Position numbers and translations under genes: made by a program. Below are positions 67 through 50,494 of a stretch of 64,000 nt of DNA, one piece after another. The stretch is from Escherichia coli. Its GTDB lineage: Bacteria > Pseudomonadota > Gammaproteobacteria > Enterobacterales > Enterobacteriaceae. The stretch lies in the NCBI RefSeq assembly GCF_003334785.1, contig NZ_QOWV01000002.1; one strand, written 5' to 3'. The notes under the pieces were generated by a model. That model saw only the letters and a program-made list of their open reading frames with translations, ran no database searches and was not told where the DNA came from. How positions within the stretch are numbered: position 1 is the first letter of the stretch; every line of letters starts with the position of its first letter.

Positions 67-186
67 TGCCTGGCGGCCGTAGCGCGGTGGTCCCACCTGA
101 CCCCATGCCGAACTCAGAAGTGAAACGCCGTAGCGCCGATGGTAGTGTGGGGTCTCCCCATGCGAGAGTAGGGAACTGCCAGGCAT
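67..186 (+). rRNA. rrf: 5S ribosomal RNA
   Basis: 120-nt sequence TGCCTGGCGGCCGTAGCGCGGTGGTCCCACCTGACCCCATGCCGAACTCAGAAGTGAAACGCCGTAGCGCCGATGGTAGTGTGGGGTCTCCCCATGCGAGAGTAGGGAACTGCCAGGCAT matches enterobacterial 5S rRNA as recalled. Confidence 0.97.
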
Positions 187-200
187 CAAATTATGCGAAA

Positions 201-226
201 GGCCATCCTGACGGATGGCCTTTTTG
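201..226 (+). terminator. rrn operon intrinsic terminator
   Basis: 8-bp GC-rich stem GGCCATCC/GGATGGCC with loop TGAC, followed by TTTTT. Confidence 0.85.
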
Positions 227-509
227 CATTGGCGCAGAAAAAAATGCCTGATGCGACGCTGCGCGTCTTATACTCCCACATATGCCAGATTCAGCAACGG
301 ATACGGCTTCCCCAACTTGCCCACTTCCATACGTGTCCTCCTTACCAGAAATTTATCCTTAAGCTCCTCAATAACCATTTTCCTGCTAACTAAATTCATG
401 GTTAAGGTTGCATAATGATATGCAACAAATGTATAACATTTCCTTTACCAAAAAAAATAAACAAAAGCGACCGACAAAAGCATCGGATTACGGCAGGAGA
501 CATAATGGC

Positions 510-1808
510 ATGGCTGAAAGTACTGTAACGGCAGACAGCAAACTGACAAGTAGTGATACTCGTCGCCGCATTTGGGCGATTGTGGGGGCCTCTTCAGGTA
601 ATCTGGTCGAGTGGTTCGATTTCTATGTCTACTCGTTCTGTTCACTCTACTTTGCCCACATCTTCTTCCCTTCCGGGAACACGACGACTCAACTACTACA
701 AACAGCAGGTGTTTTTGCTGCGGGATTCCTGATGCGCCCAATAGGCGGTTGGCTATTTGGCCGCATAGCCGATAAACATGGTCGCAAAAAATCGATGCTG
801 TTATCGGTGTGTATGATGTGTTTCGGATCGCTGGTTATCGCCTGCCTCCCAGGTTATGAAACTATAGGTACGTGGGCTCCGGCATTATTGCTTCTCGCTC
901 GTTTATTTCAGGGATTATCTGTTGGCGGAGAATATGGCACCAGCGCCACCTATATGAGTGAAGTTGCCGTTGAAGGGCGCAAAGGTTTTTACGCATCATT
1001 TCAGTATGTGACGTTGATCGGCGGACAACTGCTAGCCCTACTGGTTGTCGTGGTTTTACAACACACCATGGAAGACGCTGCACTCAGAGAGTGGGGATGG
1101 CGTATTCCTTTCGCGTTAGGAGCTGTGTTAGCTGTTGTGGCGTTGTGGTTACGTCGTCAGTTAGATGAAACTTCGCAACAAGAAACGCGCGCTTTAAAAG
1201 AAGCTGGATCTCTGAAAGGATTATGGCGCAATCGCCGTGCATTCATCATGGTTCTCGGTTTTACCGCTGCGGGCTCCCTTTGTTTCTATACCTTCACTAC
1301 TTATATGCAGAAGTATCTGGTAAATACTGCGGGAATGCATGCCAACGTGGCGAGTGGCATTATGACTGCCGCATTGTTTGTATTCATGCTTATTCAACCA
1401 CTCATTGGCGCGCTGTCGGATAAGATTGGTCGCCGTACCTCAATGTTATGTTTCGGTTCGCTGGCAGCCATTTTTACCGTTCCTATTCTCTCAGCATTGC
1501 AAAACGTTTCCTCGCCTTATGCCGCTTTTGGTCTGGTGATGTGTGCCCTGCTGATAGTGAGTTTTTATACATCAATCAGTGGAATACTGAAGGCTGAGAT
1601 GTTCCCGGCACAGGTTCGCGCATTAGGCGTTGGTCTGTCATATGCGGTCGCTAATGCTATATTTGGTGGTTCGGCGGAGTACGTAGCGTTGTCGCTGAAA
1701 TCAATAGGAATGGAAACAGCCTTCTTCTGGTATGTGACCTTGATGGCCGTGGTGGCGTTTCTGGTTTCTTTGATGCTACATCGCAAAGGGAAGGGGATGC
1801 GTCTTTAG
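510..1808 (+). CDS. kgtP: alpha-ketoglutarate:H+ symporter (MFS)
   Basis: 432-aa product [11 protein letters not shown]... with MFS motifs; AGGAGA Shine-Dalgarno about 10 nt upstream. The ORF-track start at 408 is an upstream over-extension. Confidence 0.93.
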
Positions 1809-2128
1809 TGACGGGTCAGTTGCCAGACGGTATAGCCGGTGCTTGCACCGGCGACATCCCAGGCCAAATCCTTCCAGCTCCAGCCGCTCCCTTCGGGGCG
1901 GCTATCCCAAAGCTCTTTTGACGCCCCCAAACTGACAGAGAACATCAATCCAAACATGGCACTGCGATCCCGGCTCATCCCCTGATGCTGTGAATATTCA
2001 TTTCCGGCGGCGGAAAGCATCGCCGAGGCGATAAAGTGTTGAGCTTTATCCTGCCCGCTCCAGCTATCGTTAGCCATATGGCTGCATCCAGAAAGTAACA
2101 ATAGCGAACAGACAAAAAGAATACGCAA
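1805..2128 (-). CDS. yfiM: small lipoprotein YfiM
   Basis: 107 aa from a TTG start preceded by GGAGG ([15 protein letters not shown]... lipobox LSGC). The track ORF begins 7 codons upstream, also at TTG. 4-bp overlap with the kgtP stop. Confidence 0.8.
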
Positions 2129-2140
2129 AACGTGGCCTCC

Positions 2141-2167
2141 AAAAAACAAACCCCGTACAGGACGGGG
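2141..2167 (-). terminator. intrinsic terminator downstream of pssA
   Basis: On the minus strand: stem CCCCGT/ACGGGG followed by TTTGTTTTTT, between the pssA stop and the yfiM start. Confidence 0.75.
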
Positions 2168-2173
2168 TTGTGA

Positions 2174-3529
2174 TTACAGGATGCGGCTAATTAATCGGTC
2201 GATGCGGATACGGCGCAAACGGCGGATGAGTTTACGAACCTTCACCGGATAATCGGCAATACTTTGCAGATCGCGATAGTGCTTAACGATGGTGGTATGC
2301 TCGCGGATCAGCTCCAGTTCTTTCTCTCGCTGTGGCGCCAGCTCAAGTTGCGGATCGTGGATCAAAATGGCGTTTTCCAGATCCAGACGCCAGGCGCGCG
2401 GGTTCAGGTTATTACCGGTGATCAACATCCACTTATCATCAACCCACATCCCTTTCAGGTGATAGGTGTTGTCGTCATCTTTCCATAACCGAACCACTAG
2501 CTGGTCAGTATTGACGTAATACTGCAAACGGCTCAGGAAACGACGCAGATTGATCTCATAGAGATAAGGCAATGCGCCAATTATCTTGAAAGGTTCATCT
2601 TCCGGAATGTAGAAGTCATTCGCGGTTTTATCACCAACAATAATTTCGACCTTTTTCCCTTCGCGCAGCAACTGGATAATATTGCGCACAAGGATTGCTG
2701 GCAGGTTGAAGTATGGCGTACAGATGGTTAGTTTCTGCTCGGCACAAGGCATAAGATGGAAAATGGTCTTGTTCAACAGACTCGATTTCCCCAGCCCCAC
2801 TAGCGGCGTTACAGAAAGCTGATCGTTGTCGGCATCGCCCTGGAAATGATAAGCGGCATCACGCAGCTCCTGGCGGAACAGACGAATATCGTTCTTGATT
2901 TCCGGGCTTTTTGGCCGATTAACATCATCCAGACGATTAACGCCGCGGCCATTCATAATATTCTGTGTAACCCATTCAAACATAATGTCTGACATCTTAC
3001 GGTTACGGATCAGATGATAACGGTCGTAGCGATATTTATCGTGCTGATGCAGGTAAACATCGTTCAGGCTGGCACCGCTATAAAGTACGCTATCGTCGAT
3101 GATAAAGCCTTTAAAGTGCAGAACACCAAGGGCTTCACGAGTATTGATTGGAACGCCATAAACCGGAACATCTACGCCCGGATTTTCCTGCGCCATGCGG
3201 CAGTACCAGTCAGCGTTAGTGTTAGATGCCGCAGCGCCAATGCGTCCACGTTGTGCACGATGCCAGTCGACCAGCACCCGCACATCCAGTTCCGGACGCT
3301 GCCTTTTAGCCTCATACAACGCGTTCAGAATGCCTTTGCCACCGTCATCCTGTTCGAGATACAGGGCGACAATGCAAATGCGCTGCTTCGCGCTGGCTAT
3401 TTTTTCCAGCAGCGTCTCCCGGAAGTCGGCGGGAGCGTAAAAGAAATCGACATCATCAACTGATTGAGAAATCTTGGGTAGTTGGGCAAGGTGTTGTTGA
3501 TGTTTATTACGCTTAAATTTTGACAACAT
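2174..3529 (-). CDS. pssA: CDP-diacylglycerol--serine O-phosphatidyltransferase (phosphatidylserine synthase)
   Basis: 451 aa MLSKFKRNKHQQHLAQL...; PLD-like HKD-family protein matching E. coli PssA. Confidence 0.93.
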   Translation of the reverse strand: MLSKFKRNKHQQHLAQLPKISQSVDDVDFFYAPADFRETLLEKIASAKQRICIVALYLEQDDGGKGILNALYEAKRQRPELDVRVLVDWHRAQRGRIGAAASNTNADWYCRMAQENPGVDVPVYGVPINTREALGVLHFKGFIIDDSVLYSGASLNDVYLHQHDKYRYDRYHLIRNRKMSDIMFEWVTQNIMNGRGVNRLDDVNRPKSPEIKNDIRLFRQELRDAAYHFQGDADNDQLSVTPLVGLGKSSLLNKTIFHLMPCAEQKLTICTPYFNLPAILVRNIIQLLREGKKVEIIVGDKTANDFYIPEDEPFKIIGALPYLYEINLRRFLSRLQYYVNTDQLVVRLWKDDDNTYHLKGMWVDDKWMLITGNNLNPRAWRLDLENAILIHDPQLELAPQREKELELIREHTTIVKHYRDLQSIADYPVKVRKLIRRLRRIRIDRLISRIL

Positions 3530-6334: not shown

Positions 6335-7033
6335 TTAAACGCTTTCTAACTGTTCTGCTGTGATGCTACCCAGATGTTGCGTTTTTCCTGCCAGATAGCG
6401 TGTTTTAAAGCGGGTAAAATGCTCGCCTAACCCTGCCGCCGCCCCGGTATCGCCGGCCATATCTAACAGTGCGATGGCTACCTCGGCAGTACAATATTGG
6501 CCTTCAGCCTGGGCTTCACGCAGGCGATAGGCAGAAAGCCGGGAAAGATCGACGGAAATGACGGGAAGATTATCCAGATACGGACTTTTACGAAACATCT
6601 TGCGAGCTTCCGGCCAGGTACCATCGAGCATGATAAACAGCGGTGGCTTACCGGCAGGTGGTGTGAAGATCACTTCCCGTTGCTCATCAGCATACGAAGC
6701 GGGAAAGACCACCATTGGCTGATAGTCCGGGTTTTGCACCAACTCCAGCAAATCCTGCGAGGGTTCGGTACGCGACCATTGAAACGCAACGGTATCAGGC
6801 AAAATATCAGCAATGAGACGCCCGGTATTACTGGGCTTCATTGGCTCGGTGTCGAACATCAGCAAACAGAAGCGACTTTTTGCTTGTGCTGGGGTAATTG
6901 TCGAACAGAGACATAATTTCTCTGGCAAAAGACAGCGTTGGCAGCGACGAACGCGATTACCGCGGGCAAGAAAAGGACGTGTTGCGCGCGCAATACGCTC
7001 GGCGCGTAACTGGAGAACAGCGTTTTCGGTCAT
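6335..7033 (-). CDS. tapT: tRNA-uridine aminocarboxypropyltransferase (DTW domain protein)
   Basis: 232 aa from internal start MTENAVLQLRA...; cysteine-rich DTW-type N-terminus (CQRCLLPEKLCLC). The track ORF has a 17-codon upstream extension. Confidence 0.8.
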   Translation of the reverse strand: MTENAVLQLRAERIARATRPFLARGNRVRRCQRCLLPEKLCLCSTITPAQAKSRFCLLMFDTEPMKPSNTGRLIADILPDTVAFQWSRTEPSQDLLELVQNPDYQPMVVFPASYADEQREVIFTPPAGKPPLFIMLDGTWPEARKMFRKSPYLDNLPVISVDLSRLSAYRLREAQAEGQYCTAEVAIALLDMAGDTGAAAGLGEHFTRFKTRYLAGKTQHLGSITAEQLESV

Positions 7034-7101
7034 AAGAGAGCGTCGAAAAAACGCCATTGTCGCAGAGGAGAAAACGGGGCACAAGATGCGCCCCGGTAAG
7101 A

Positions 7102-7521
7102 TTAAAGAGATTCGTTCAGCCAGCTATCGAACGGCGCTTTCGGTACTGCGCCATTAAGCATGTCGACAACCTGACCGTTTTTGAAAATCATGATCGTCGG
7201 TATACTACGAATTCCAAAGCGACTGCTCAATTCACGTTCAGCTTCGGTATTCACTTTCACAAAGCGCACTTTACCGCTACGCTCTTGCGCGACATCTTCA
7301 AAAATTGGTGCGAAATTACGGCAGGGGCCGCACCACGGTGCCCAGAAGTCGATCACCACAGGTAGATCATCCTTCAGCAATTTGTCGAGTGTTTCACCGG
7401 TCGCATTAATCACCTCTCCGTCAAACAAGTCGTGACCGCAGCGTCCGCATTTTGCCGCATCTTCGATCCGATCGTCGGGAATGCGATTGATGGCCTGACA
7501 ATGGGTACAAACGGTATTCAT
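7102..7521 (-). CDS. trxC: thioredoxin 2
   Basis: 139 aa; N-terminal zinc-finger cysteines (CTHCQ...CGRCG) plus WCGPC active site. Confidence 0.95.
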
Positions 7522-7727
7522 AACTAACCTCGGGATGAGTAAGGAGACTTATCGGCAACGACGCCGGTATGTTTCTAATATGTTACATATTATCGGGGAC
7601 ATTGTTCCAGACAACAATCTGTTTTATTCAATAGGTATGATAGTCGCAGGCTTTGGTACGAAATCATGGCGAACCGCGCGGACTTCGGGTAATCTGCGCG
7701 CTTCGCGCAGCGCTGGTGGAGAAAAGC

Positions 7728-8765
7728 ATGAACGATGAAATGAAAGGTAAAAGCGGCAAGGTCAAAGTGATGTATGTCCGCAGTGATGATGATTCTGATA
7801 AACGTACCCACAACCCGCGTACCGGGAAAGGGGGCGGGCGTCCAGGAAAATCTCGTGCTGACGGTGGCCGTCGCCCCGCCCGCGATGACAAACAGAGTCA
7901 GCCCCGTGACCGCAAGTGGGAAGATTCGCCGTGGCGCACGGTTTCCCGCGCGCCGGGTGATGAGACGCCGGAAAAGGCCGATCACGGTGGCATCAGTGGT
8001 AAAAGTTTTATTGATCCGGAAGTGTTGCGTCGTCAGCGTGCGGAAGAAACCCGCGTCTACGGCGAAAATGCATGTCAGGCACTTTTCCAGAGCCGTCCGG
8101 AAGCGATTGTTCGCGCCTGGTTTATCCAGAGTGTAACGCCGCGTTTTAAAGAAGCTTTGCGCTGGATGGCAGCAAACCGCAAAGCGTACCATGTGGTGGA
8201 TGAAGCGGAATTGACAAAAGCGTCAGGCACGGAACATCACGGCGGCGTTTGCTTCTTGATCAAAAAGCGTAACGGTACAACCGTGCAGCAGTGGGTAAGC
8301 CAGGCAGGCGCGCAGGATTGCGTTCTGGCACTGGAAAACGAATCTAACCCGCATAACCTGGGTGGCATGATGCGCAGCTGCGCGCACTTCGGCGTGAAAG
8401 GTGTCGTGGTGCAGGATGCGGCACTGCTGGAGTCGGGGGCGGCTATCCGTACCGCAGAAGGCGGCGCAGAGCACGTTCAGCCGATTACTGGCGACAACAT
8501 TGTTAACGTGCTGGATGATTTCCGTCAGGCAGGTTACACCGTAGTGACCACTTCCAGCGAGCAGGGTAAACCGCTGTTCAAAACTAGTCTGCCAGCGAAA
8601 ATGGTACTGGTGCTGGGTCAGGAATATGAAGGGTTACCGGATGCCGCACGCGATCCGAACGATCTGCGCGTGAAGATTGACGGTACGGGCAACGTTGCCG
8701 GGCTGAATATCTCTGTCGCAACCGGCGTTTTGCTTGGTGAATGGTGGCGTCAGAATAAAGCCTGA
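7728..8765 (+). CDS. yfiF: SpoU/TrmH-family RNA 2'-O-methyltransferase with basic N-terminal extension
   Basis: 345 aa from [11 protein letters not shown]...; C-terminal SpoU methylase region; Lys/Arg/Gly-rich N-terminus. Track start at 7653 is an over-extension. Confidence 0.88.
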
Positions 8766-42199: not shown

Positions 42200-43393
42200 T
42201 CAAATCTGTCGTAACTGCGCCTCAACATACAAATAGCCAATTCCCAGCACCTGTTGTGCGCGGCTTAATTGCCCAAAGCCAATTTGCGTCGCTTTCACGC
42301 TCGGTCCTTCGTCGCGGTCGAACGGGTTAAATCCTGTCTGGCGAATAATAGTATTAAGCCAGTTCTCACCAAAGGCACAACTGCGACCGTACAACCAAAT
42401 CTGATTAATATTGAGGATGTTGAGGAAGTTATACAGACTCAAACCAATGGCATTGGCAGAGCGATCAACCCAGCTGGTGATCCACGGTTCTCCACTTTGC
42501 CAGGCAGCGATTAACTGCGCTGTAGTCAGTTTTTCAGGATCAAGTTGAGTACTAACCGGTTGTGATTTTAGCCATACCCGCGCCTGTTTTTTTAATGCGC
42601 TTAACGAGGCGACGGTTTCCAGGCAGCCATAACGTCCACAGTCGCAGACGACGCCATCCGGATTAACGATGGTGTGACCAATCTGTCCGCTACCATACAA
42701 ACTGCCGCGATAAATTTGCTCGTTAATCACGAACGACGAGCCAATGCCGTAATCAACGTTGATCACGCAGAAATCCCGTTCCTGCGAATTATTTTGCCAT
42801 TTCTCCGCCAGCGCCAGCATCACGCAGTCATTATCGACCATCACCCGAATGCCGAGCTTCTCTTCCAGCAGATATTTCACCTCCACCGGCGTTGTCCACG
42901 GCGCTTGCGGCATGGTTTGCGACACGCCGGTCACAGGATCAACCTGACCGTGGATTGCCAACGCCAGGTTGATGGTATGGTCCGGCCACAATTTACGGTG
43001 GCGATGCCAGCATTTTTCGATTTCGGACAGCAGCGCCTGCGGCGTCGGTGCATCAATCTGTAAATACTCAAATTCACCTTTCGGACTTAAACAAGCATTA
43101 GCAACCTGACACTCAATACTGGTGGGCGTCACGTTCAGGCACAGCGTCCAGTCACCTTCCGGCGCAATCAGCCATGTACCGCTACTATGCCCGCGCGTCT
43201 GGCTTTCATCGTCAATATTCACCACCCGTTTTTCGCTTTCCAGTTCCTGCAAAATATTACTGACTGCCGGAATCGAAATTTGCGCCAGCCGGGCCAGCGT
43301 TGATTTATTGGCGCGCTTTTGCCGGTACAGCAGTTCCAGAATCACGCATTTGTTATGGTGGCGAATCTGTTGATTATTAATGCAGGCTCTCAT
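42200..43393 (-). CDS. yphH: ROK/NagC-family transcriptional regulator
   Basis: About 397 aa; N-terminal wHTH and ROK sugar-kinase-like domain; divergent from yphG. Start at 43393 or 43399. Confidence 0.85.
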   Translation of the reverse strand: MRACINNQQIRHHNKCVILELLYRQKRANKSTLARLAQISIPAVSNILQELESEKRVVNIDDESQTRGHSSGTWLIAPEGDWTLCLNVTPTSIECQVANACLSPKGEFEYLQIDAPTPQALLSEIEKCWHRHRKLWPDHTINLALAIHGQVDPVTGVSQTMPQAPWTTPVEVKYLLEEKLGIRVMVDNDCVMLALAEKWQNNSQERDFCVINVDYGIGSSFVINEQIYRGSLYGSGQIGHTIVNPDGVVCDCGRYGCLETVASLSALKKQARVWLKSQPVSTQLDPEKLTTAQLIAAWQSGEPWITSWVDRSANAIGLSLYNFLNILNINQIWLYGRSCAFGENWLNTIIRQTGFNPFDRDEGPSVKATQIGFGQLSRAQQVLGIGYLYVEAQLRQI

Positions 43394-43510
43394 CTTCACT
43401 AAACCTTGTTTAGTTAATTGCGTGATTATTCCGCGAAAACATTGCCAGATTGTTCAATACACTGCCACAAATCTTTTAATTCAGTATGTCTTGTTAATAT
43501 TGAGGGCACC

Positions 43511-46500
43511 ATGACTCCAGTAAAAGTGTGGCAAGAGCGCGTTGAGATCCCGACCTATGAAACCGGGCCGCAGGATATACATCCCATGTTCCTGGAAAAT
43601 CGCGTTTATCAGGGATCGTCCGGCGCGGTTTATCCCTACGGCGTGACCGATACGCTGAGCGAGCAGAAAACCCTGAAATCCTGGCAGGCGGTGTGGCTGG
43701 AAAACGACTACATCAAAGTGATGATCCTGCCGGAACTGGGCGGTCGGGTGCATCGCGCGTGGGATAAAGTGAAACAGCGCGATTTTGTTTATCACAATGA
43801 AGTCATTAAACCTGCGCTGGTGGGGCTGCTGGGGCCGTGGATTTCCGGTGGGATTGAGTTTAACTGGCCGCAACATCATCGCCCGACCACCTTTATGCCC
43901 GTTGATTTCACCCTCGAAGCCCATGAAGACGGTGCACAGACGGTGTGGGTAGGCGAAACGGAGCCGATGCATGGTTTACAGGTGATGACAGGTTTCACCC
44001 TGCGCCCTGACCGGGCGGCGCTGGAAATCGCCAGCCGCGTCTATAACGGGAACGCCACGCCGCGTCATTTCTTGTGGTGGGCCAACCCGGCAGTGAAAGG
44101 GGGGGAAGGGCATCAGAGCGTCTTCCCGCCGGATGTAACGGCGGTGTTTGATCACGGCAAACGGGCCGTCTCCGCTTTCCCCATCGCTACCGGCACTTAC
44201 TACAAAGTGGACTACTCCGCTGGAGTGGACATTTCTCGCTATAAAAATGTGCCTGTTCCAACCTCATATATGGCCGAAAAATCGCAGTACGATTTTGTCG
44301 GCGCGTGGTGTCACGATGAAGATGGCGGTTTGCTGCACGTTGCCAACCACCATATTGCGCCAGGTAAAAAACAGTGGAGTTGGGGACACAGTGAATTTGG
44401 CCAGGCGTGGGATAAGAGTCTGACCGACAATAACGGCCCGTATATCGAACTGATGACCGGTATTTTTGCCGATAACCAGCCCGATTTTACCTGGCTTGAT
44501 GCTTACGAAGAGAAGCGTTTTGAGCAGTATTTCCTGCCTTATCATTCTTTGGGCATGGTGCAAAATGCCTCCCGCGATGCGGTGATAAAACTCCAGCGTA
44601 GTAAGCGGGGGATTGAGTGGGGGCTGTATGCCATCTCTCCGTTGAACGGATACCGCCTGGCGATCCGCGAAATCGGTAAATGCAACGCGTTACTTGATGA
44701 TGCCGTGGCACTGATGCCTGCGACCGCCATCCAGGGCGTGTTGCACGGTATCAATCCTGAAAGGCTGACCATTGAGCTCTCCGATGCCGACGGCAATATT
44801 GTACTGAGTTATCAGGAACATCAGCCGCAAGCGTTGCCGTTACCGGACGTCGCCAAAGCGCCACTGGCAGCACAAGACATTACCAGTACAGATGAAGCCT
44901 GGTTTATCGGTCAGCATCTGGAGCAATATCATCACGCCAGCCGTTCACCGTTCGATTACTACCTGCGCGGCGTGGCGCTGGACCCGCTGGATTATCGCTG
45001 TAACCTGGCGCTGGCGATGCTGGAATATAACCGCGCAGATTTCCCGCAAGCGGTGGCGTATGCCACTCAGGCTCTGAAACGCGCACATTCGCTGAACAAA
45101 AATCCGCAGTGCGGACAGGCGAGTTTGATTCGCGCCAGTGCTTACGAACGTCAGGGACAATATCAACAAGCCGAAGAGGATTTCTGGCGTGCGGTCTGGA
45201 GCGGCAACAGCAAAGCCGGTGGCTATTATGGCCTGGCACGACTGGCGGCGCGTAATGGTAACTTCGACGCTGGTCTGGATTTTTGCCAACAAAGTCTTCG
45301 CGCCTGCCCAACCAATCAGGAAGTGCTTTGCCTGCATAATCTGCTGCTGGTGTTAAGTGGTCGTCAGGACAACGCGCGTGTGCAGCGCGAGAAACTGCTG
45401 CGCGATTATCCGCTGAACGCCACTCTGTGGTGGCTGAACTGGTTCGATGGTCGTAGCGAATCAGCTCTCGCGCAGTGGCGCGGTCTGTGTCAGGGACGCG
45501 ACGTTAACGCCCTGATGACCGCCGGGCAACTGATTAACTGGGGAATGCCCACCCTGGCGGCAGAGATGCTGAACGCACTGGACTGCCAGCGCACGCTGCC
45601 GCTTTACCTGCAAGCCAGCTTGCTGCCGAAAGCCGAACGTGGCGAACTGGTCGCAAAAGCCATTGATGTCTTCCCGCAGTTTGTCCGTTTCCCGAATACG
45701 CTGGAAGAAGTGGCGGCGCTGGAGAGTATTGAAGAGTGCTGGTTTGCTCGCCATTTACTAGCTTGCTTCTACTACAACAAACGTAGCTACAACAAAGCCA
45801 TTGCCTTTTGGCAACGTTGCGTAGAGATGTCGCCGGAGTTTGCCGACGGCTGGCGCGGGTTAGCGATCCATGCGTGGAATAAGCAACACGATTATGAGCT
45901 GGCCGCGCGTTATCTTGATAATGCTTATCAGCTTGCGCCGCAGGATGCACGTCTGCTTTTCGAACGGGATTTGCTGGATAAGTTAAGTGGAGCCACACCG
46001 GAGAAACGACTGGCGCGTCTGGAAAATAATCTGGAAATTGCGCTGAAACGCGACGACATGACCGCAGAACTGCTCAATTTGTGGCATCTCACGGGTCAGG
46101 CAGACAAAGCGGCGGACATTCTCGCCACGCGCAAATTCCACCCGTGGGAAGGCGGGGAAGGGAAGGTCACCAGTCAGTTTATCCTCAACCAGTTATTACG
46201 CGCCTGGCAGCATCTTGATGCCAGACAGCCGCAGCAGGCCTGCGAACTGCTTCATGCCGCGCTGCATTATCCGGAGAATTTAAGCGAAGGCCGTTTACCG
46301 GGGCAAACTGATAACGACATCTGGTTCTGGCAGGCGATATGCGCCAACGCGCAGGGCGATGAAACTGAAGCGACGCGTTGTTTACGTCTGGCGGCGACCG
46401 GCGATCGCACTATTAACATTCACAGTTATTACAACGATCAGCCGGTTGATTATCTCTTCTGGCAAGGGATGGCGCTGCGACTGCTGGGCGAACAACAAAC

Positions 46501-46792
46501 CGCACAGCAACTGTTTAGTGAAATGAAACAGTGGGCGCAAGAGATGGCGAAAACCAGTATCGAAGCGGATTTCTTTGCCGTCTCGCAACCTGACTTGTTG
46601 TCGCTGTATGGCGATTTACAACAGCAGCATAAAGAAAAATGCCTGATGGTGGCGATGCTGGCGTCCGCGGGACTCGGGGAGGTTGCGCAATATGAGTCTG
46701 CTCGCGCTGAATTGACGGCGATTAATCCGGCTTGGCCGAAAGCGGCATTATTCACCACCGTGATGCCTTTTATTTTTAACCGCGTTCACTAA
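43511..46792 (+). CDS. yphG: large TPR-repeat protein of unknown function
   Basis: 1093 aa from MTPVKVWQERVEIP... with GAGGG Shine-Dalgarno; TPR-like repeats in the C-terminal half; no obvious signal peptide. Track ORF over-extended by 31 codons. Confidence 0.85.
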   Translation: MTPVKVWQERVEIPTYETGPQDIHPMFLENRVYQGSSGAVYPYGVTDTLSEQKTLKSWQAVWLENDYIKVMILPELGGRVHRAWDKVKQRDFVYHNEVIKPALVGLLGPWISGGIEFNWPQHHRPTTFMPVDFTLEAHEDGAQTVWVGETEPMHGLQVMTGFTLRPDRAALEIASRVYNGNATPRHFLWWANPAVKGGEGHQSVFPPDVTAVFDHGKRAVSAFPIATGTYYKVDYSAGVDISRYKNVPVPTSYMAEKSQYDFVGAWCHDEDGGLLHVANHHIAPGKKQWSWGHSEFGQAWDKSLTDNNGPYIELMTGIFADNQPDFTWLDAYEEKRFEQYFLPYHSLGMVQNASRDAVIKLQRSKRGIEWGLYAISPLNGYRLAIREIGKCNALLDDAVALMPATAIQGVLHGINPERLTIELSDADGNIVLSYQEHQPQALPLPDVAKAPLAAQDITSTDEAWFIGQHLEQYHHASRSPFDYYLRGVALDPLDYRCNLALAMLEYNRADFPQAVAYATQALKRAHSLNKNPQCGQASLIRASAYERQGQYQQAEEDFWRAVWSGNSKAGGYYGLARLAARNGNFDAGLDFCQQSLRACPTNQEVLCLHNLLLVLSGRQDNARVQREKLLRDYPLNATLWWLNWFDGRSESALAQWRGLCQGRDVNALMTAGQLINWGMPTLAAEMLNALDCQRTLPLYLQASLLPKAERGELVAKAIDVFPQFVRFPNTLEEVAALESIEECWFARHLLACFYYNKRSYNKAIAFWQRCVEMSPEFADGWRGLAIHAWNKQHDYELAARYLDNAYQLAPQDARLLFERDLLDKLSGATPEKRLARLENNLEIALKRDDMTAELLNLWHLTGQADKAADILATRKFHPWEGGEGKVTSQFILNQLLRAWQHLDARQPQQACELLHAALHYPENLSEGRLPGQTDNDIWFWQAICANAQGDETEATRCLRLAATGDRTINIHSYYNDQPVDYLFWQGMALRLLGEQQTAQQLFSEMKQWAQEMAKTSIEADFFAVSQPDLLSLYGDLQQQHKEKCLMVAMLASAGLGEVAQYESARAELTAINPAWPKAALFTTVMPFIFNRVH

Positions 46793-46888
46793 ACCCTATT
46801 AACTGTAATATTTGAGCGGCACGCGCTGCCGCTCATCACAAAATAATTAGAATAAGCCGTTGTTAATAAAAACCCTACAGGAGGCTCT

Positions 46889-47872
46889 ATGCCTACAAAA
46901 ATGAGAACAACCCGTAATCTATTATTAATGGCTACGCTATTAGGTAGCGCACTATTTGCCAGGGCTGCGGAAAAAGAAATGACCATTGGCGCAATATACC
47001 TTGATACTCAGGGATACTACGCTGGAGTGCGTCAGGGCGTTCAGGATGCGGCAAAAGATTCCTCAGTACAAGTTCAGTTAATAGAAACTAACGCCCAGGG
47101 TGATATTTCGAAAGAAAGTACCTTTGTTGATACCCTCGTGGCGCGTAATGTCGATGCCATTATTTTATCGGCAGTGTCTGAAAATGGCAGTAGCCGTACC
47201 GTTCGTCGCGCCAGTGAAGCGGGCATTCCGGTGATTTGCTACAACACCTGTATTAATCAAAAGGGGGTCGATAAATATGTCTCGGCGTATCTGGTCGGCG
47301 ATCCGCTGGAATTTGGTAAAAAACTGGGTAACGCTGCCGCTGATTATTTTATTGCCAATAAAATTGACCAGCCGAAAATTGCCGTCATCAATTGCGAAGC
47401 CTTTGAAGTTTGTGTGCAGCGACGTAAAGGATTTGAAGAAGTTTTAAAATCCCGCGTTCCCGGCGCGCAAATTGTCGCTAATCAGGAAGGGACTGTTTTA
47501 GATAAAGCGATTTCCGTTGGTGAAAAACTAATTATCTCCACGCCGGATCTCAACGCCATTATGGGGGAATCGGGCGGTGCGACACTCGGCGCGGTAAAAG
47601 CGGTACGTAATCAAAATCAGGCCGGAAAAATTGCTGTTTTCGGTTCGGATATGACAACCGAAATTGCTCAGGAGCTGGAAAACAATCAGGTGCTGAAAGC
47701 GGTAGTGGATATTTCCGGTAAGAAAATGGGCAATGCTGTTTTCGCGCAAACATTGAAGGTTATCAATAAACAAGCCGACGGTGAAAAAGTGATTCAGGTG
47801 CCTATCGATCTCTATACCAAAACGGAAGACGGTAAACAGTGGCTGGCAACGCACGTTGATGGTCTGCCCTAA
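46889..47872 (+). CDS. yphF: ABC transporter periplasmic sugar-binding protein
   Basis: 327 aa with signal peptide; periplasmic binding protein (ribose/LacI-type) fold signature. Confidence 0.88.
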   Translation: MPTKMRTTRNLLLMATLLGSALFARAAEKEMTIGAIYLDTQGYYAGVRQGVQDAAKDSSVQVQLIETNAQGDISKESTFVDTLVARNVDAIILSAVSENGSSRTVRRASEAGIPVICYNTCINQKGVDKYVSAYLVGDPLEFGKKLGNAAADYFIANKIDQPKIAVINCEAFEVCVQRRKGFEEVLKSRVPGAQIVANQEGTVLDKAISVGEKLIISTPDLNAIMGESGGATLGAVKAVRNQNQAGKIAVFGSDMTTEIAQELENNQVLKAVVDISGKKMGNAVFAQTLKVINKQADGEKVIQVPIDLYTKTEDGKQWLATHVDGLP

Positions 47873-47894
47873 TCGCTGATTCGCAGAGGTCCCT

Positions 47895-49406
47895 ATGTTC
47901 ACGGCAACAGAGGCAGTCCCGGTAGCAAAAGTGGTGGCAGGAAATAAGCGTTATCCCGGCGTCGTTGCGCTGGATAACGTTAACTTCACGCTCAATAAAG
48001 GCGAAGTTCGTGCGCTGTTAGGTAAAAACGGCGCGGGCAAATCGACTCTCATTCGAATGCTTACCGGCAGCGAACGCCCGGATAGCGGTGATATCTGGAT
48101 TGGCGAGACGCGACTGGAAGGTGACGAAGCTACGCTGACTCGCCGTGCCGCTGAACTGGGGGTGCGCGCGGTTTATCAGGAGTTAAGTCTGGTGGAAGGG
48201 CTGACAGTGGCGGAAAACCTCTGCCTCGGTCAGTGGCCCCGCCGCAACGGCATGATTGATTACCTGCAAATGGCGCAGGATGCCCAACGTTGCTTACAGG
48301 CGCTGGGCGTTGACGTTAGTCCTGAACAACTTGTTTCAACGCTAAGCCCGGCGCAAAAGCAGCTGGTGGAAATTGCGCGGGTGATGAAGGGCGAGCCGCG
48401 CGTGGTCATTCTTGATGAACCTACCAGTTCGCTTGCGAGTGCGGAAGTTGAACTGGTGATCAGCGCGGTGAAAAAGATGTCGGCACTGGGCGTGGCGGTG
48501 ATTTATGTCAGCCACCGGATGGAAGAAATTCGCCGCATTGCCTCCTGTGCCACCGTTATGCGCGATGGTCAGGTGGCGGGCGATGTGATGCTCGAAAACA
48601 CCTCCACGCATCATATTGTGTCGCTGATGCTCGGGCGCGATCACGTTGATATTGCGCCGGTAGCCCCTCAGGAAATTGTGGATCAGGCCGTGCTGGAAGT
48701 CCGTGCGTTACGCCATAAGCCCAAGCTGGAGGATATCAGTTTTACGCTACGTCGTGGCGAAGTGCTCGGCATTGCTGGTCTGCTGGGGGCAGGGCGCAGT
48801 GAATTGCTGAAGGCGATTGTTGGGCTGGAGGAGTATGAACAGGGCGAAATTGTTATCAACGGCGAGAAAATCACGCGCCCCGATTACGGCGACATGCTGA
48901 AACGCGGCATTGGCTATACGCCAGAAAACCGCAAAGAAGCGGGGATCATTCCCTGGTTGGGCGTTGACGAAAATACAGTGCTGACCAATCGGCAAAAAAT
49001 CAGCGCCAACGGTGTGCTGCAATGGTCCACCATCCGCCGCCTGACCGAAGAGGTGATGCAGCGGATGACGGTCAAGGCCGCCAGTAGCGAAACACCCATC
49101 GGCACGCTTTCTGGTGGCAATCAGCAAAAAGTGGTGATCGGTCGTTGGGTCTATGCTGCCAGCCAGATTTTGTTGCTCGACGAGCCAACGCGCGGCGTCG
49201 ATATCGAAGCCAAACAGCAGATTTACCGTATTGTCCGTGAGCTGGCTGCCGAAGGAAAAAGCGTGGTGTTTATCTCTAGTGAAGTGGAGGAGTTGCCGCT
49301 GGTGTGTGACCGCATCCTGTTATTACAGCACGGCACGTTCTCGCAGGAGTTTCACGCTCCGGTCAATGTGGATGAGCTGATGTCCGCCATTCTGTCTGTG
49401 CACTGA
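47895..49406 (+). CDS. yphE: ABC transporter ATP-binding protein (tandem ATPase domains, sugar-import type)
   Basis: 503 aa; two nucleotide-binding domains with Walker A (GKNGAGKST), signature LSGGNQQK and Walker B. Confidence 0.9.
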   Translation: MFTATEAVPVAKVVAGNKRYPGVVALDNVNFTLNKGEVRALLGKNGAGKSTLIRMLTGSERPDSGDIWIGETRLEGDEATLTRRAAELGVRAVYQELSLVEGLTVAENLCLGQWPRRNGMIDYLQMAQDAQRCLQALGVDVSPEQLVSTLSPAQKQLVEIARVMKGEPRVVILDEPTSSLASAEVELVISAVKKMSALGVAVIYVSHRMEEIRRIASCATVMRDGQVAGDVMLENTSTHHIVSLMLGRDHVDIAPVAPQEIVDQAVLEVRALRHKPKLEDISFTLRRGEVLGIAGLLGAGRSELLKAIVGLEEYEQGEIVINGEKITRPDYGDMLKRGIGYTPENRKEAGIIPWLGVDENTVLTNRQKISANGVLQWSTIRRLTEEVMQRMTVKAASSETPIGTLSGGNQQKVVIGRWVYAASQILLLDEPTRGVDIEAKQQIYRIVRELAAEGKSVVFISSEVEELPLVCDRILLLQHGTFSQEFHAPVNVDELMSAILSVH

Positions 49407-49430
49407 TGAATTTTACCGAGGAACCTGAAG

Positions 49431-50429
49431 ATGTCTGCTTCGTCATTACCATTGCCGCAGGGCAAGAGCGTCTCGCTCAAACAATTTGTCAGTCGCCATA
49501 TTAATGAGATCGGTTTGCTGGTGGTGATTGCCATTCTTTATCTGGTCTTCTCCCTGAACGCGCCTGGCTTTATCTCATTGAATAACCAGATGAACGTGCT
49601 GCGCGATGCCGCCACCATTGGGATTGCCGCCTGGGCGATGACGCTGATTATTATCTCCGGTGAAATTGATGTCAGCGTTGGGCCGATGGTGGCTTTTGTC
49701 TCGGTGTGCCTGGCATTTTTGCTGCAATTTGAAGTTCCGCTGGCGGTGGCGTGCCTGCTGGTGTTGCTGTTAGGCGCGCTGATGGGAACGCTGGCCGGGG
49801 TGCTGCGCGGCGTGTTTAATGTACCAAGTTTCGTTGCCACACTGGGGCTGTGGAGCGCCCTGCGCGGAATGGGGCTGTTTATGACGAACGCACTGCCAGT
49901 GCCGATTGATGAAAACGAGGTGCTGGACTGGCTGGGCGGACAATTTCTCGGTGTGCCGGTATCCGCGCTGATCATGATTGTGTTGTTTGCGCTGTTTGTG
50001 TTCATCAGCCGCAAAACCGCCTTCGGGCGCTCGGTTTTTGCCGTTGGCGGTAATGCTACGGCGGCGCAGTTGTGCGGCATCAACGTTCGTCGGGTGCGCA
50101 TTCTTATCTTTACCCTTTCGGGATTATTAGCGGCGGTGACCGGCATTTTGTTGGCGGCGCGCCTCGGTTCTGGTAACGCAGGTGCCGCAAACGGTCTGGA
50201 GTTTGACGTCATCGCCGCGGTCGTGGTCGGCGGTACGGCACTTTCCGGCGGTCGCGGTTCCCTGTTCGGTACATTGCTTGGTGTGCTGGTGATTACGCTA
50301 ATCGGTAACGGTCTGGTGCTGCTCGGTATTAACTCCTTTTTCCAGCAGGTGGTACGCGGCGTCATCATCGTGGTGGCGGTGCTGGCGAATATCTTGCTGA
50401 CCCAGCGAAGCAGTAAAGCGAAACGCTAA
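49431..50429 (+). CDS. yphD: ABC transporter permease (ribose/xylose-type)
   Basis: 332 aa hydrophobic multi-TM protein immediately downstream of the ATPase. Confidence 0.88.
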   Translation: MSASSLPLPQGKSVSLKQFVSRHINEIGLLVVIAILYLVFSLNAPGFISLNNQMNVLRDAATIGIAAWAMTLIIISGEIDVSVGPMVAFVSVCLAFLLQFEVPLAVACLLVLLLGALMGTLAGVLRGVFNVPSFVATLGLWSALRGMGLFMTNALPVPIDENEVLDWLGGQFLGVPVSALIMIVLFALFVFISRKTAFGRSVFAVGGNATAAQLCGINVRRVRILIFTLSGLLAAVTGILLAARLGSGNAGAANGLEFDVIAAVVVGGTALSGGRGSLFGTLLGVLVITLIGNGLVLLGINSFFQQVVRGVIIVVAVLANILLTQRSSKAKR

Positions 50430-50494
50430 ACCTTAACGCCCCTGGCGCGGGTGCGGCAGGGATGAAAATTAATCGTATTGTTAATGAGGGATTT

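Follow-up and report, generated by a model that had tools for sequence, protein, structure and literature searches.

What does YphG do, the 1093-residue product of a gene that heads a sugar-importer operon in Escherichia coli: does it hold other proteins together, or does it act on a sugar itself? The question arose in a 64,000-nucleotide stretch of E. coli DNA (RefSeq assembly GCF_003334785.1, contig NZ_QOWV01000002.1; hereafter the window), where an earlier reading of the letters alone (the original prediction) had taken a large open reading frame (ORF) at 43511-46792 for yphG and interpreted its product as a cytoplasmic tetratricopeptide repeat (TPR) scaffold associated with an ATP-binding cassette (ABC) importer. 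The gene assignment was correct: the coordinates are identical to those of the RefSeq annotation "DUF5107 domain-containing protein", and a 4-kb query around yphG found a match in 5,426 of 5,426 complete E. coli genomes, always chromosomal and nearly always in a single copy per genome. The ORF is real and yphG is a core E. coli gene. As to function, where the original prediction finds partial support, we regard an as yet undiscovered enzyme of sugar processing as more likely than a passive scaffold, and assign a probability of roughly 55% to YphG being the catalytic part, in the cytoplasm, of a module for the use of small sugars.

The N-terminal half of YphG carries a significant match to the Pfam family profile DUF5107 (PF17128; residues 39-324, model positions 5-281 of 310, E=3.1e-55), and no glycoside hydrolase (GH) or polysaccharide lyase (PL) catalytic-domain family was matched in Pfam or NCBIfam. 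An AlphaFold2 model based on an alignment of 83 full-length family members presents the protein as a single unit (pLDDT 95.3, pTM 0.93), beta-rich over residues 1-440 and with 35 helices over residues 460-1092. Residues 1-345 form a beta-supersandwich of the aldose-1-epimerase (mutarotase) type, and YphG corresponds structurally to PDB 5cd6, the solved member of the DUF5107 family; structural matches also place this fold in the non-enzymatic YidC P1 domain and PnsB2. The view that the N-terminal half resembles no obvious enzyme motif holds for GH, PL and Aldose_epim profiles and fails for the fold. The C-terminal half is rich in Ala and Leu and built of TPR-type helical units, as had been predicted: tandem helix-turn-helix repeats of the 34-residue type were found by profile, Pfam reported a few weak TPR motifs and NCBIfam only sub-threshold TPR similarity, and the structural matches are open TPR solenoids (CDC27, PilF, MamA and Rap). 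The domain boundaries called for by the original prediction return a helical solenoid joined to a domain with a sugar-enzyme fold. A Foldseek search of AFDB50 returned as neighbours only uncharacterised DUF5107 or TPR proteins.

The frame is open for a further 31 codons upstream, to a TTG at 43418 (1124 aa). We ruled this start out, since the ATG at 43511 has a Shine-Dalgarno (SD)-like GAGGG, fits RefSeq and coincides with the residue at which homologues begin. The enrichment in Trp, His and Asp ascribed to the N-terminal half applies to Trp (3.4%) and His (4.0%) and not to Asp. Because the N-terminus is hydrophilic and no segment shows transmembrane-like hydrophobicity, we place YphG in the cytoplasm, in agreement with the original prediction. 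As to the two features that would have marked it as a glycosidase there, a signal peptide or a glycoside-hydrolase fold, no signal peptide was found in YphG, no GH family matched by sequence, and the fold is that of mutarotases.

The relatives of the N-terminal 480 residues number 3,925 at the 50%-identity cluster level and are mostly about 1,100 aa long, with YphG matching them as one continuous stretch down to ~35% identity. Conservation was counted over 74 aligned homologues (25-58% whole-protein identity), those that come next in the list once the closest Enterobacterales and Aeromonas relatives are passed. Positions conserved in at least 90% of these number 63 within residues 39-345, 1 in the second beta domain and 22 in the 630-residue helical part; polar and aromatic residues are frequent among those conserved in the N-domain, which has about 25 invariant polar residues. 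The ratios of nonsynonymous to synonymous substitution (dN/dS) relative to E. albertii were 0.013 (N-domain), 0.093 (second beta domain) and 0.076 (helical part), so that both halves are under purifying selection, the N-domain very strongly. Within the helical half the most conserved element is a non-helical loop, FHPWEGGEG, which is recognisable in homologues down to about 30% identity.

How far does the likeness to mutarotases extend? The beta-supersandwich is present in YphG, while membership by sequence or profile is not: neither Pfam nor NCBIfam matched Aldose_epim (PF01263), and hhalign comparisons of the YphG alignment with those of GalM and YphB (local, low-mact and global) stayed below 3% probability. 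The residue mappings from hhalign, which also contradicted one another, were dropped. We instead modelled YphB and compared the secondary-structure strings of the two models, which show the same succession of strands after the first three. On this basis H123 of YphG would be the counterpart of H83 of YphB, both lying in the corresponding loop 9 residues ahead of the next strand, and E313 that of the catalytic Glu, the respective strand motifs being FCLEPM (E253) in YphB, CLExQ..PD in GalM and YIELMTG plus NQPD in YphG. The strand of the second His reads TNHxYFNL in GalM and GWHPYF in YphB, and WWANPAV with an invariant Asn in YphG. Spacings from the first His to the second His or Asn, and from there to the Glu, are 69/121 in YphG, 65/105 in YphB and 75/131 in GalM. 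The catalytic set of E. coli GalM we take to be H104, H175 and E309; its second catalytic His is the acid catalyst. The comparison suggests that YphG may retain the first His (H123) and the Glu (E313), with the invariant Asn192 in place of the second His. YphG has the mutarotase fold but, because of this apparent replacement, is probably not a plain mutarotase.

Only one solved structure, 5cd6 (BDI_1685 of Parabacteroides distasonis, "TPR-domain containing protein"), is a sequence relative of the N-terminal half, and it was the sole match of the N-domain profile against all PDB sequences. This structural-genomics entry, which has no function attached, shares H123, W190, N192, H215, K287, E313 and Q323 with YphG, but comprises only 580 aa, lacks the C-terminal ~500 residues including FHPWEGGEG, and differs at H122, R124 and K286. 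The stand-alone aldose-1-epimerases (GalM 1l7j, YphB 3nre, YeaD 2hta and the yeast hexose-6-phosphate mutarotase 2ciq) have no detectable sequence or profile similarity to YphG, which departs from them by Asn192, apparently in place of the second His, by many additional invariant polar residues, and by carrying, fused in the same chain, another beta domain as well as a TPR solenoid of 630 residues. In GH65, GH94, GH95 and GH15 an N-terminal mutarotase-like sandwich precedes a helical domain, whose closed (alpha/alpha)6 barrel harbours the catalytic residues; the helical part of YphG, in contrast, is like open TPR solenoids and its conserved residues lie in the beta domain. GH186 (the E. coli beta-1,2-glucanases OpgG/OpgD) also counts among the closest known systems. 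TPR scaffolds such as APC/C Cdc27, PilF/PilW, MamA and the Rap phosphatases consist of the repeat array and work through partner binding, whereas in YphG, a unit of two parts, the repeats make up the half that is less conserved and the core is an enzyme-type sugar-binding fold. We found no functional study of YphG, DUF5107, 5CD6/BDI_1685 or the other yph genes in the literature, where YphG occurs solely as a PCR or typing marker or gene-list entry, and DUF5107 in one case, for phagotrophic stramenopiles, as a marker whose function is unknown. Gene, DUF and a single crystal structure are already catalogued, and the nearest characterised proteins share the fold only; what is new is a mutarotase-superfamily domain in a distinct conserved architecture, probably with different chemistry.

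We then turned to gene neighbourhoods, scanning one genome per species and collecting 80 loci with full-length YphG homologues (39-95% identity) from Enterobacterales, Aeromonas, Photobacterium, Bacteroidota, Bacillota and Bifidobacterium (four phyla). Neighbouring ORFs were called and clustered, representatives were annotated, and counts refer to the five genes on either side. In E. coli, yphG is, as had been recognised, the first gene of an ABC-importer operon, yphGFEDCB, whose importer (YphF, YphE and YphD) is of the CUT2 type, and the ROK regulator gene yphH lies divergently on its other side (RefSeq). The proposed link to an ABC importer does not generalise: CUT2 ABC genes were present at 10/80 loci and a XylE-like sugar porter of the major facilitator superfamily (MFS; E=1e-113) at 44/80, with one or the other at 53 and some loci having neither. 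Regulators vary likewise, AraC proteins occurring at 44/80 loci and ROK proteins at 14/80 (13 directly adjacent), together 58 of 80, as do conventional mutarotases (23/80: YphB-type epimerases at 13, GalM at 10). Several gamma-proteobacteria have a minimal module of ROK regulator, YphG, MFS porter and YphB, and the trio of monosaccharide transporter, mutarotase and YphG recurs in three phyla. Since YphG stays constant where transporter, regulator and mutarotase each give way to non-homologous substitutes, a pathway-specific enzyme is indicated rather than an adaptor of one ABC importer.

Glycan-degrading genes are the other recurrent company. GH2 beta-galactosidases related to BT4151 were found at 32/80 loci and GH35 at 12/80 (GH2 or GH35 at 36/80), GH97 or GH36-like proteins at 8/80, SusC/D at 11/80 and sulfatases at 7/80. 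Bacillota have tight operons of the YphG gene with exo-glycosidases (GH2, GH35, GH95) and CUT1 oligosaccharide permeases, and in Bacillus and Bifidobacterium the YphG gene overlaps the start of the following GH35 or GH2 gene; a gut Bacteroides locus reads AraC, GH2, MFS, YphG, GH95, GH35, DUF2264, GH2. Signal peptides were detected in none of 81 close YphG homologues and in none of the neighbouring mutarotases, and in 24/39 GH2, 5/5 GH97, 12/15 sulfatase and 5/6 GDSL esterase neighbours. About 16-18 more distant aligned family members do have a classical signal peptide; one of these lies in a polysaccharide utilisation locus (PUL) with SusC/D, GH16, two sulfatases and beta-helix proteins, and another beside AraC, Aldose_epim, GH36 and a sugar transporter. 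These secreted members, together with the translational coupling to glycosidases, favour reading YphG as a sugar-pathway enzyme.

Some loci deserve mention for their own sake. At 13462-20285 of the uncultured Bacteroides locus L035, genes for GH95 (alpha-L-fucosidase/galactosidase family), GH35 and DUF2264 adjoin the YphG homologue between two GH2 genes, which suggests that the locus targets a fucosylated or galactosylated glycan. A protein of ~742 aa recurs in five loci (L019 at 6335-8560, L016, L061, L065 and L068), encoded no more than six genes from the YphG homologue and directly next to it in the last two; four of its five copies have a signal peptide, and it had no significant Pfam or NCBIfam match. 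In Bacillus sp. REN16 (L075, 2963-8736 and 20572-22764), an AraC-YphG-GH35-GH2-MFS cluster sits between genes for L-lactate permease and LutB/LldF-type lactate oxidation and a bifunctional rhamnulose-1-phosphate aldolase/dehydrogenase gene. The hint of a link to the catabolism of a deoxy-sugar, rhamnose, was not adopted, because it was seen in this one locus only.

Which other roles could these observations accommodate? YphG could be a non-catalytic TPR adaptor, scaffold or sugar sensor, whose beta domain merely binds a sugar or partner and whose solenoid recruits or regulates, for example, the transporter ATPase or the ROK/AraC regulator. The helical half is genuinely TPR-like, at 38/80 loci the YphG homologue has a regulator gene as its direct neighbour, and the canonical second catalytic His is apparently missing; a sugar-binding adaptor also retains some plausibility because the mutarotase fold serves structurally in the YidC P1 domain and PnsB2. 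Against this, ABC systems are the minority partner beside MFS porters, the regulator alternates between ROK and AraC types, conservation and selection peak at the invariant polar residues of the beta domain rather than on the TPR surface, and neither the secreted subset in PULs nor the overlap with GH35/GH2 genes suits an adaptor. We therefore consider such a role improbable. That YphG is simply a very large aldose-1-epimerase is more doubtful still, and indeed highly improbable: the acid-His strand has an invariant Asn, profile similarity to the Aldose_epim family is absent in Pfam and hhalign, and with a separate YphB or GalM encoded nearby at 23 loci such an activity would be redundant.

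Another reading has YphG act on a monosaccharide, as an isomerase, epimerase, ring-form converter or hydratase, making a common aldose from an unusual sugar (possibly galactose-related, anhydro or modified) by mutarotase-like ring opening. The transporters that accompany YphG come from monosaccharide families (CUT2 ABC, XylE-like porter) and fit this at least as well as they fit a glycoside; the three-phylum trio is consistent with it, and the fold is typical of enzymes working on the hemiacetal of free sugars. Glycan cleavage, however, better suits the Bacillota operons with GH2, GH35, GH95 and CUT1 permeases and the secreted PUL members, 1,100 residues would be very large for a monosaccharide isomerase, and a cofactor motif is not evident in YphG. 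We regard this alternative as unlikely.

Taking YphG as the catalytic component of a sugar pathway, we can sketch how it might work. The mutarotase-type beta-supersandwich (residues 1-345) would bind the sugar with H123 and E313 at the mutarotase catalytic positions. With N192 replacing the acid-catalyst His, and with the further invariant polar residues H122, H215, K286/K287, D306, Q323 and D325, the chemistry could take place at or next to the anomeric centre and differ from simple mutarotation. The TPR-like solenoid would be integral to the unit and may lend its FHPWEGGEG loop to the active site. In the cell, the YphDEF importer (in most other bacteria an MFS sugar porter) would take up a glycoside or modified sugar that is small and probably contains galactose, YphG would cleave or convert it to ordinary aldose(s), YphB would then equilibrate their anomers, and YphC, as an optional step, might oxidise a polyol-type co-product. 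Such an arrangement would parallel the lac and mel systems, with regulator, permease, cleaving or converting enzyme (YphG) and mutarotase (YphB) acting together on a small, probably galactose-related compound. Of all this, the analysis shows the fold, the pattern of conservation, the purifying selection, the location in the cell and the neighbourhoods of the gene; catalysis by YphG, the matching of its residues to those of mutarotases, the type of reaction and the class of substrate are deduced.

Table. Coordinates in the window of yphG, its domains and proposed key residues, and the neighbouring yph genes.
Feature	Position	Strand	Evidence or remarks
yphH, ROK-family regulator, divergent	42200..43393	-	NCBIfam NagC/Mlc-like, below cut-off; RefSeq
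yphG coding sequence, 1093 aa plus stop	43511..46792	+	ORF, SD-like GAGGG ahead of ATG, RefSeq
Residues 1-345: beta-supersandwich domain, aldose-1-epimerase fold, conserved core (DUF5107 = 39-324)	43511..44545	+	
H122-H123 in NWPQHHRP loop; H123, proposed counterpart of first mutarotase His (YphB H83)	43874..43879	+	invariant; equivalence inferred from strand order
N192 in strand WWANPAV (189-196); proposed place of second mutarotase His (YphB H148, GWHPYF)	44084..44086	+	invariant; strand correspondence and spacing, inferred
H215 (FDHGKR): family-specific invariant His	44153..44155	+	invariant, kept in 5cd6
Residues 280-304, HHIAPGKKQWSWGHSEFGQAWDKSL: peptide cited in the original prediction; among the most conserved DUF5107 blocks	44348..44422	+	G285, K286, K287, W291, G292, W300, L304 at least 90% conserved
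E313 in strand YIELMTG (311-318), then NQPD 322-325; would correspond to the catalytic Glu of mutarotases (YphB E253)	44447..44449	+	invariant; strand order
Residues 346-440: second all-beta domain, poorly conserved	44546..44830	+	model strands 357-435; mean conservation 0.33; dN/dS 0.093
Residues 460-1092: TPR-like helical solenoid, 35 helices, modelled packed with beta domain as one unit	44888..46786	+	
FHPWEGGEG loop, residues 876-884, non-helical; most conserved element of helical half	46136..46162	+	F876, E880 at least 90% conserved; loop in model
yphF, yphE, yphD: CUT2-type monosaccharide ABC importer (binding protein, ATPase, permease)	46889..50429	+	NCBIfam, RefSeq
yphC, Zn-dependent polyol/alcohol dehydrogenase family	50462..51556	+	NCBIfam below cut-off (Tdh, scyllo-inosose 3-dehydrogenase); PDB relatives alcohol dehydrogenase (ADH), xylitol dehydrogenase, Tdh
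yphB, aldose-1-epimerase family protein; crystal structure 3nre = b2544	51568..52440	+	

The remaining operon genes (Table) follow yphG closely, the gaps from yphG through yphF, yphE, yphD and yphC to yphB measuring 96, 22, 24, 32 and 11 nt. By NCBIfam, YphF, YphE and YphD resemble allose, ribose, galactose, arabinose and xylose systems; a search for the substrate through the nearest solved relatives of YphF (5hsg) and YphC (ADH, xylitol dehydrogenase and Tdh) gave no transferable ligand information. A promoter scan of the yph operon did not rise above shuffled controls. At the yphH start, in the divergent yphH-yphG region, a 10-nt inverted repeat (TTCACTAAAC / GTTTAGTTAA, 90% complementary, 3-nt spacer, 43395-43417) is a candidate operator for the ROK regulator. 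The yphG-yphF gap holds a 9-bp GC-rich hairpin (UGAGCGGCA-CGCGC-UGCCGCUCA, 46813-46835), 21 nt past the yphG stop, without a trailing U-tract and with a fold z-score of only -1.8 for the entire intergenic region; it could act in the stability or processing of the mRNA, or serve to set yphG apart from the transporter genes as a weak attenuator.

Sequence records add two observations on occurrence. Truncated forms of YphG (643, 741 and 955 aa) are on record in some E. coli assemblies (P0040, P0028 and P0002), and yphB, of which the window has an intact copy (290 aa), bears a frameshift in E. coli O157:H16 str. 98-3133 and is annotated there as a pseudogene (L001, 17569-18442); for these reasons a minority of strains may be losing the operon by decay. 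The database entry "Uncharacterized protein yphG [Beauveria bassiana D1-5]" (P0021), with 1093 aa and 74% identity to YphG, most likely stems from enterobacterial DNA that contaminated a fungal assembly.

We tentatively propose, as a possibility well short of even odds, that YphG and its ~3,900 sequence clusters form a new carbohydrate-active enzyme family, in which catalysis would occur on a mutarotase-derived beta-supersandwich with Asn for the acid His and a TPR solenoid as cap. In E. coli the family would then define a cryptic core pathway, with a glycoside or modified sugar that is small and related to galactose as its substrate, and elsewhere it would supply a missing step beside the GH2, GH35, GH95 and GH97 exo-glycosidases of gut and marine Bacteroidota and Bacillota. 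The gene belongs to the uncharacterised share of the E. coli core genome, and its family is large, widespread and present in glycan-utilisation loci of gut and marine bacteria. In place of the label "TPR scaffold" stands a testable proposal that names residues (H122/H123, N192, H215, K286/K287 and E313) and limits the substrates to be considered to small sugars, galactose-containing or related. Once its activity is assigned, thousands of genes could be annotated and a six-gene operon of E. coli explained. If YphG cleaves glycosides, it would be a new catalytic scaffold for the classification of carbohydrate-active enzymes.

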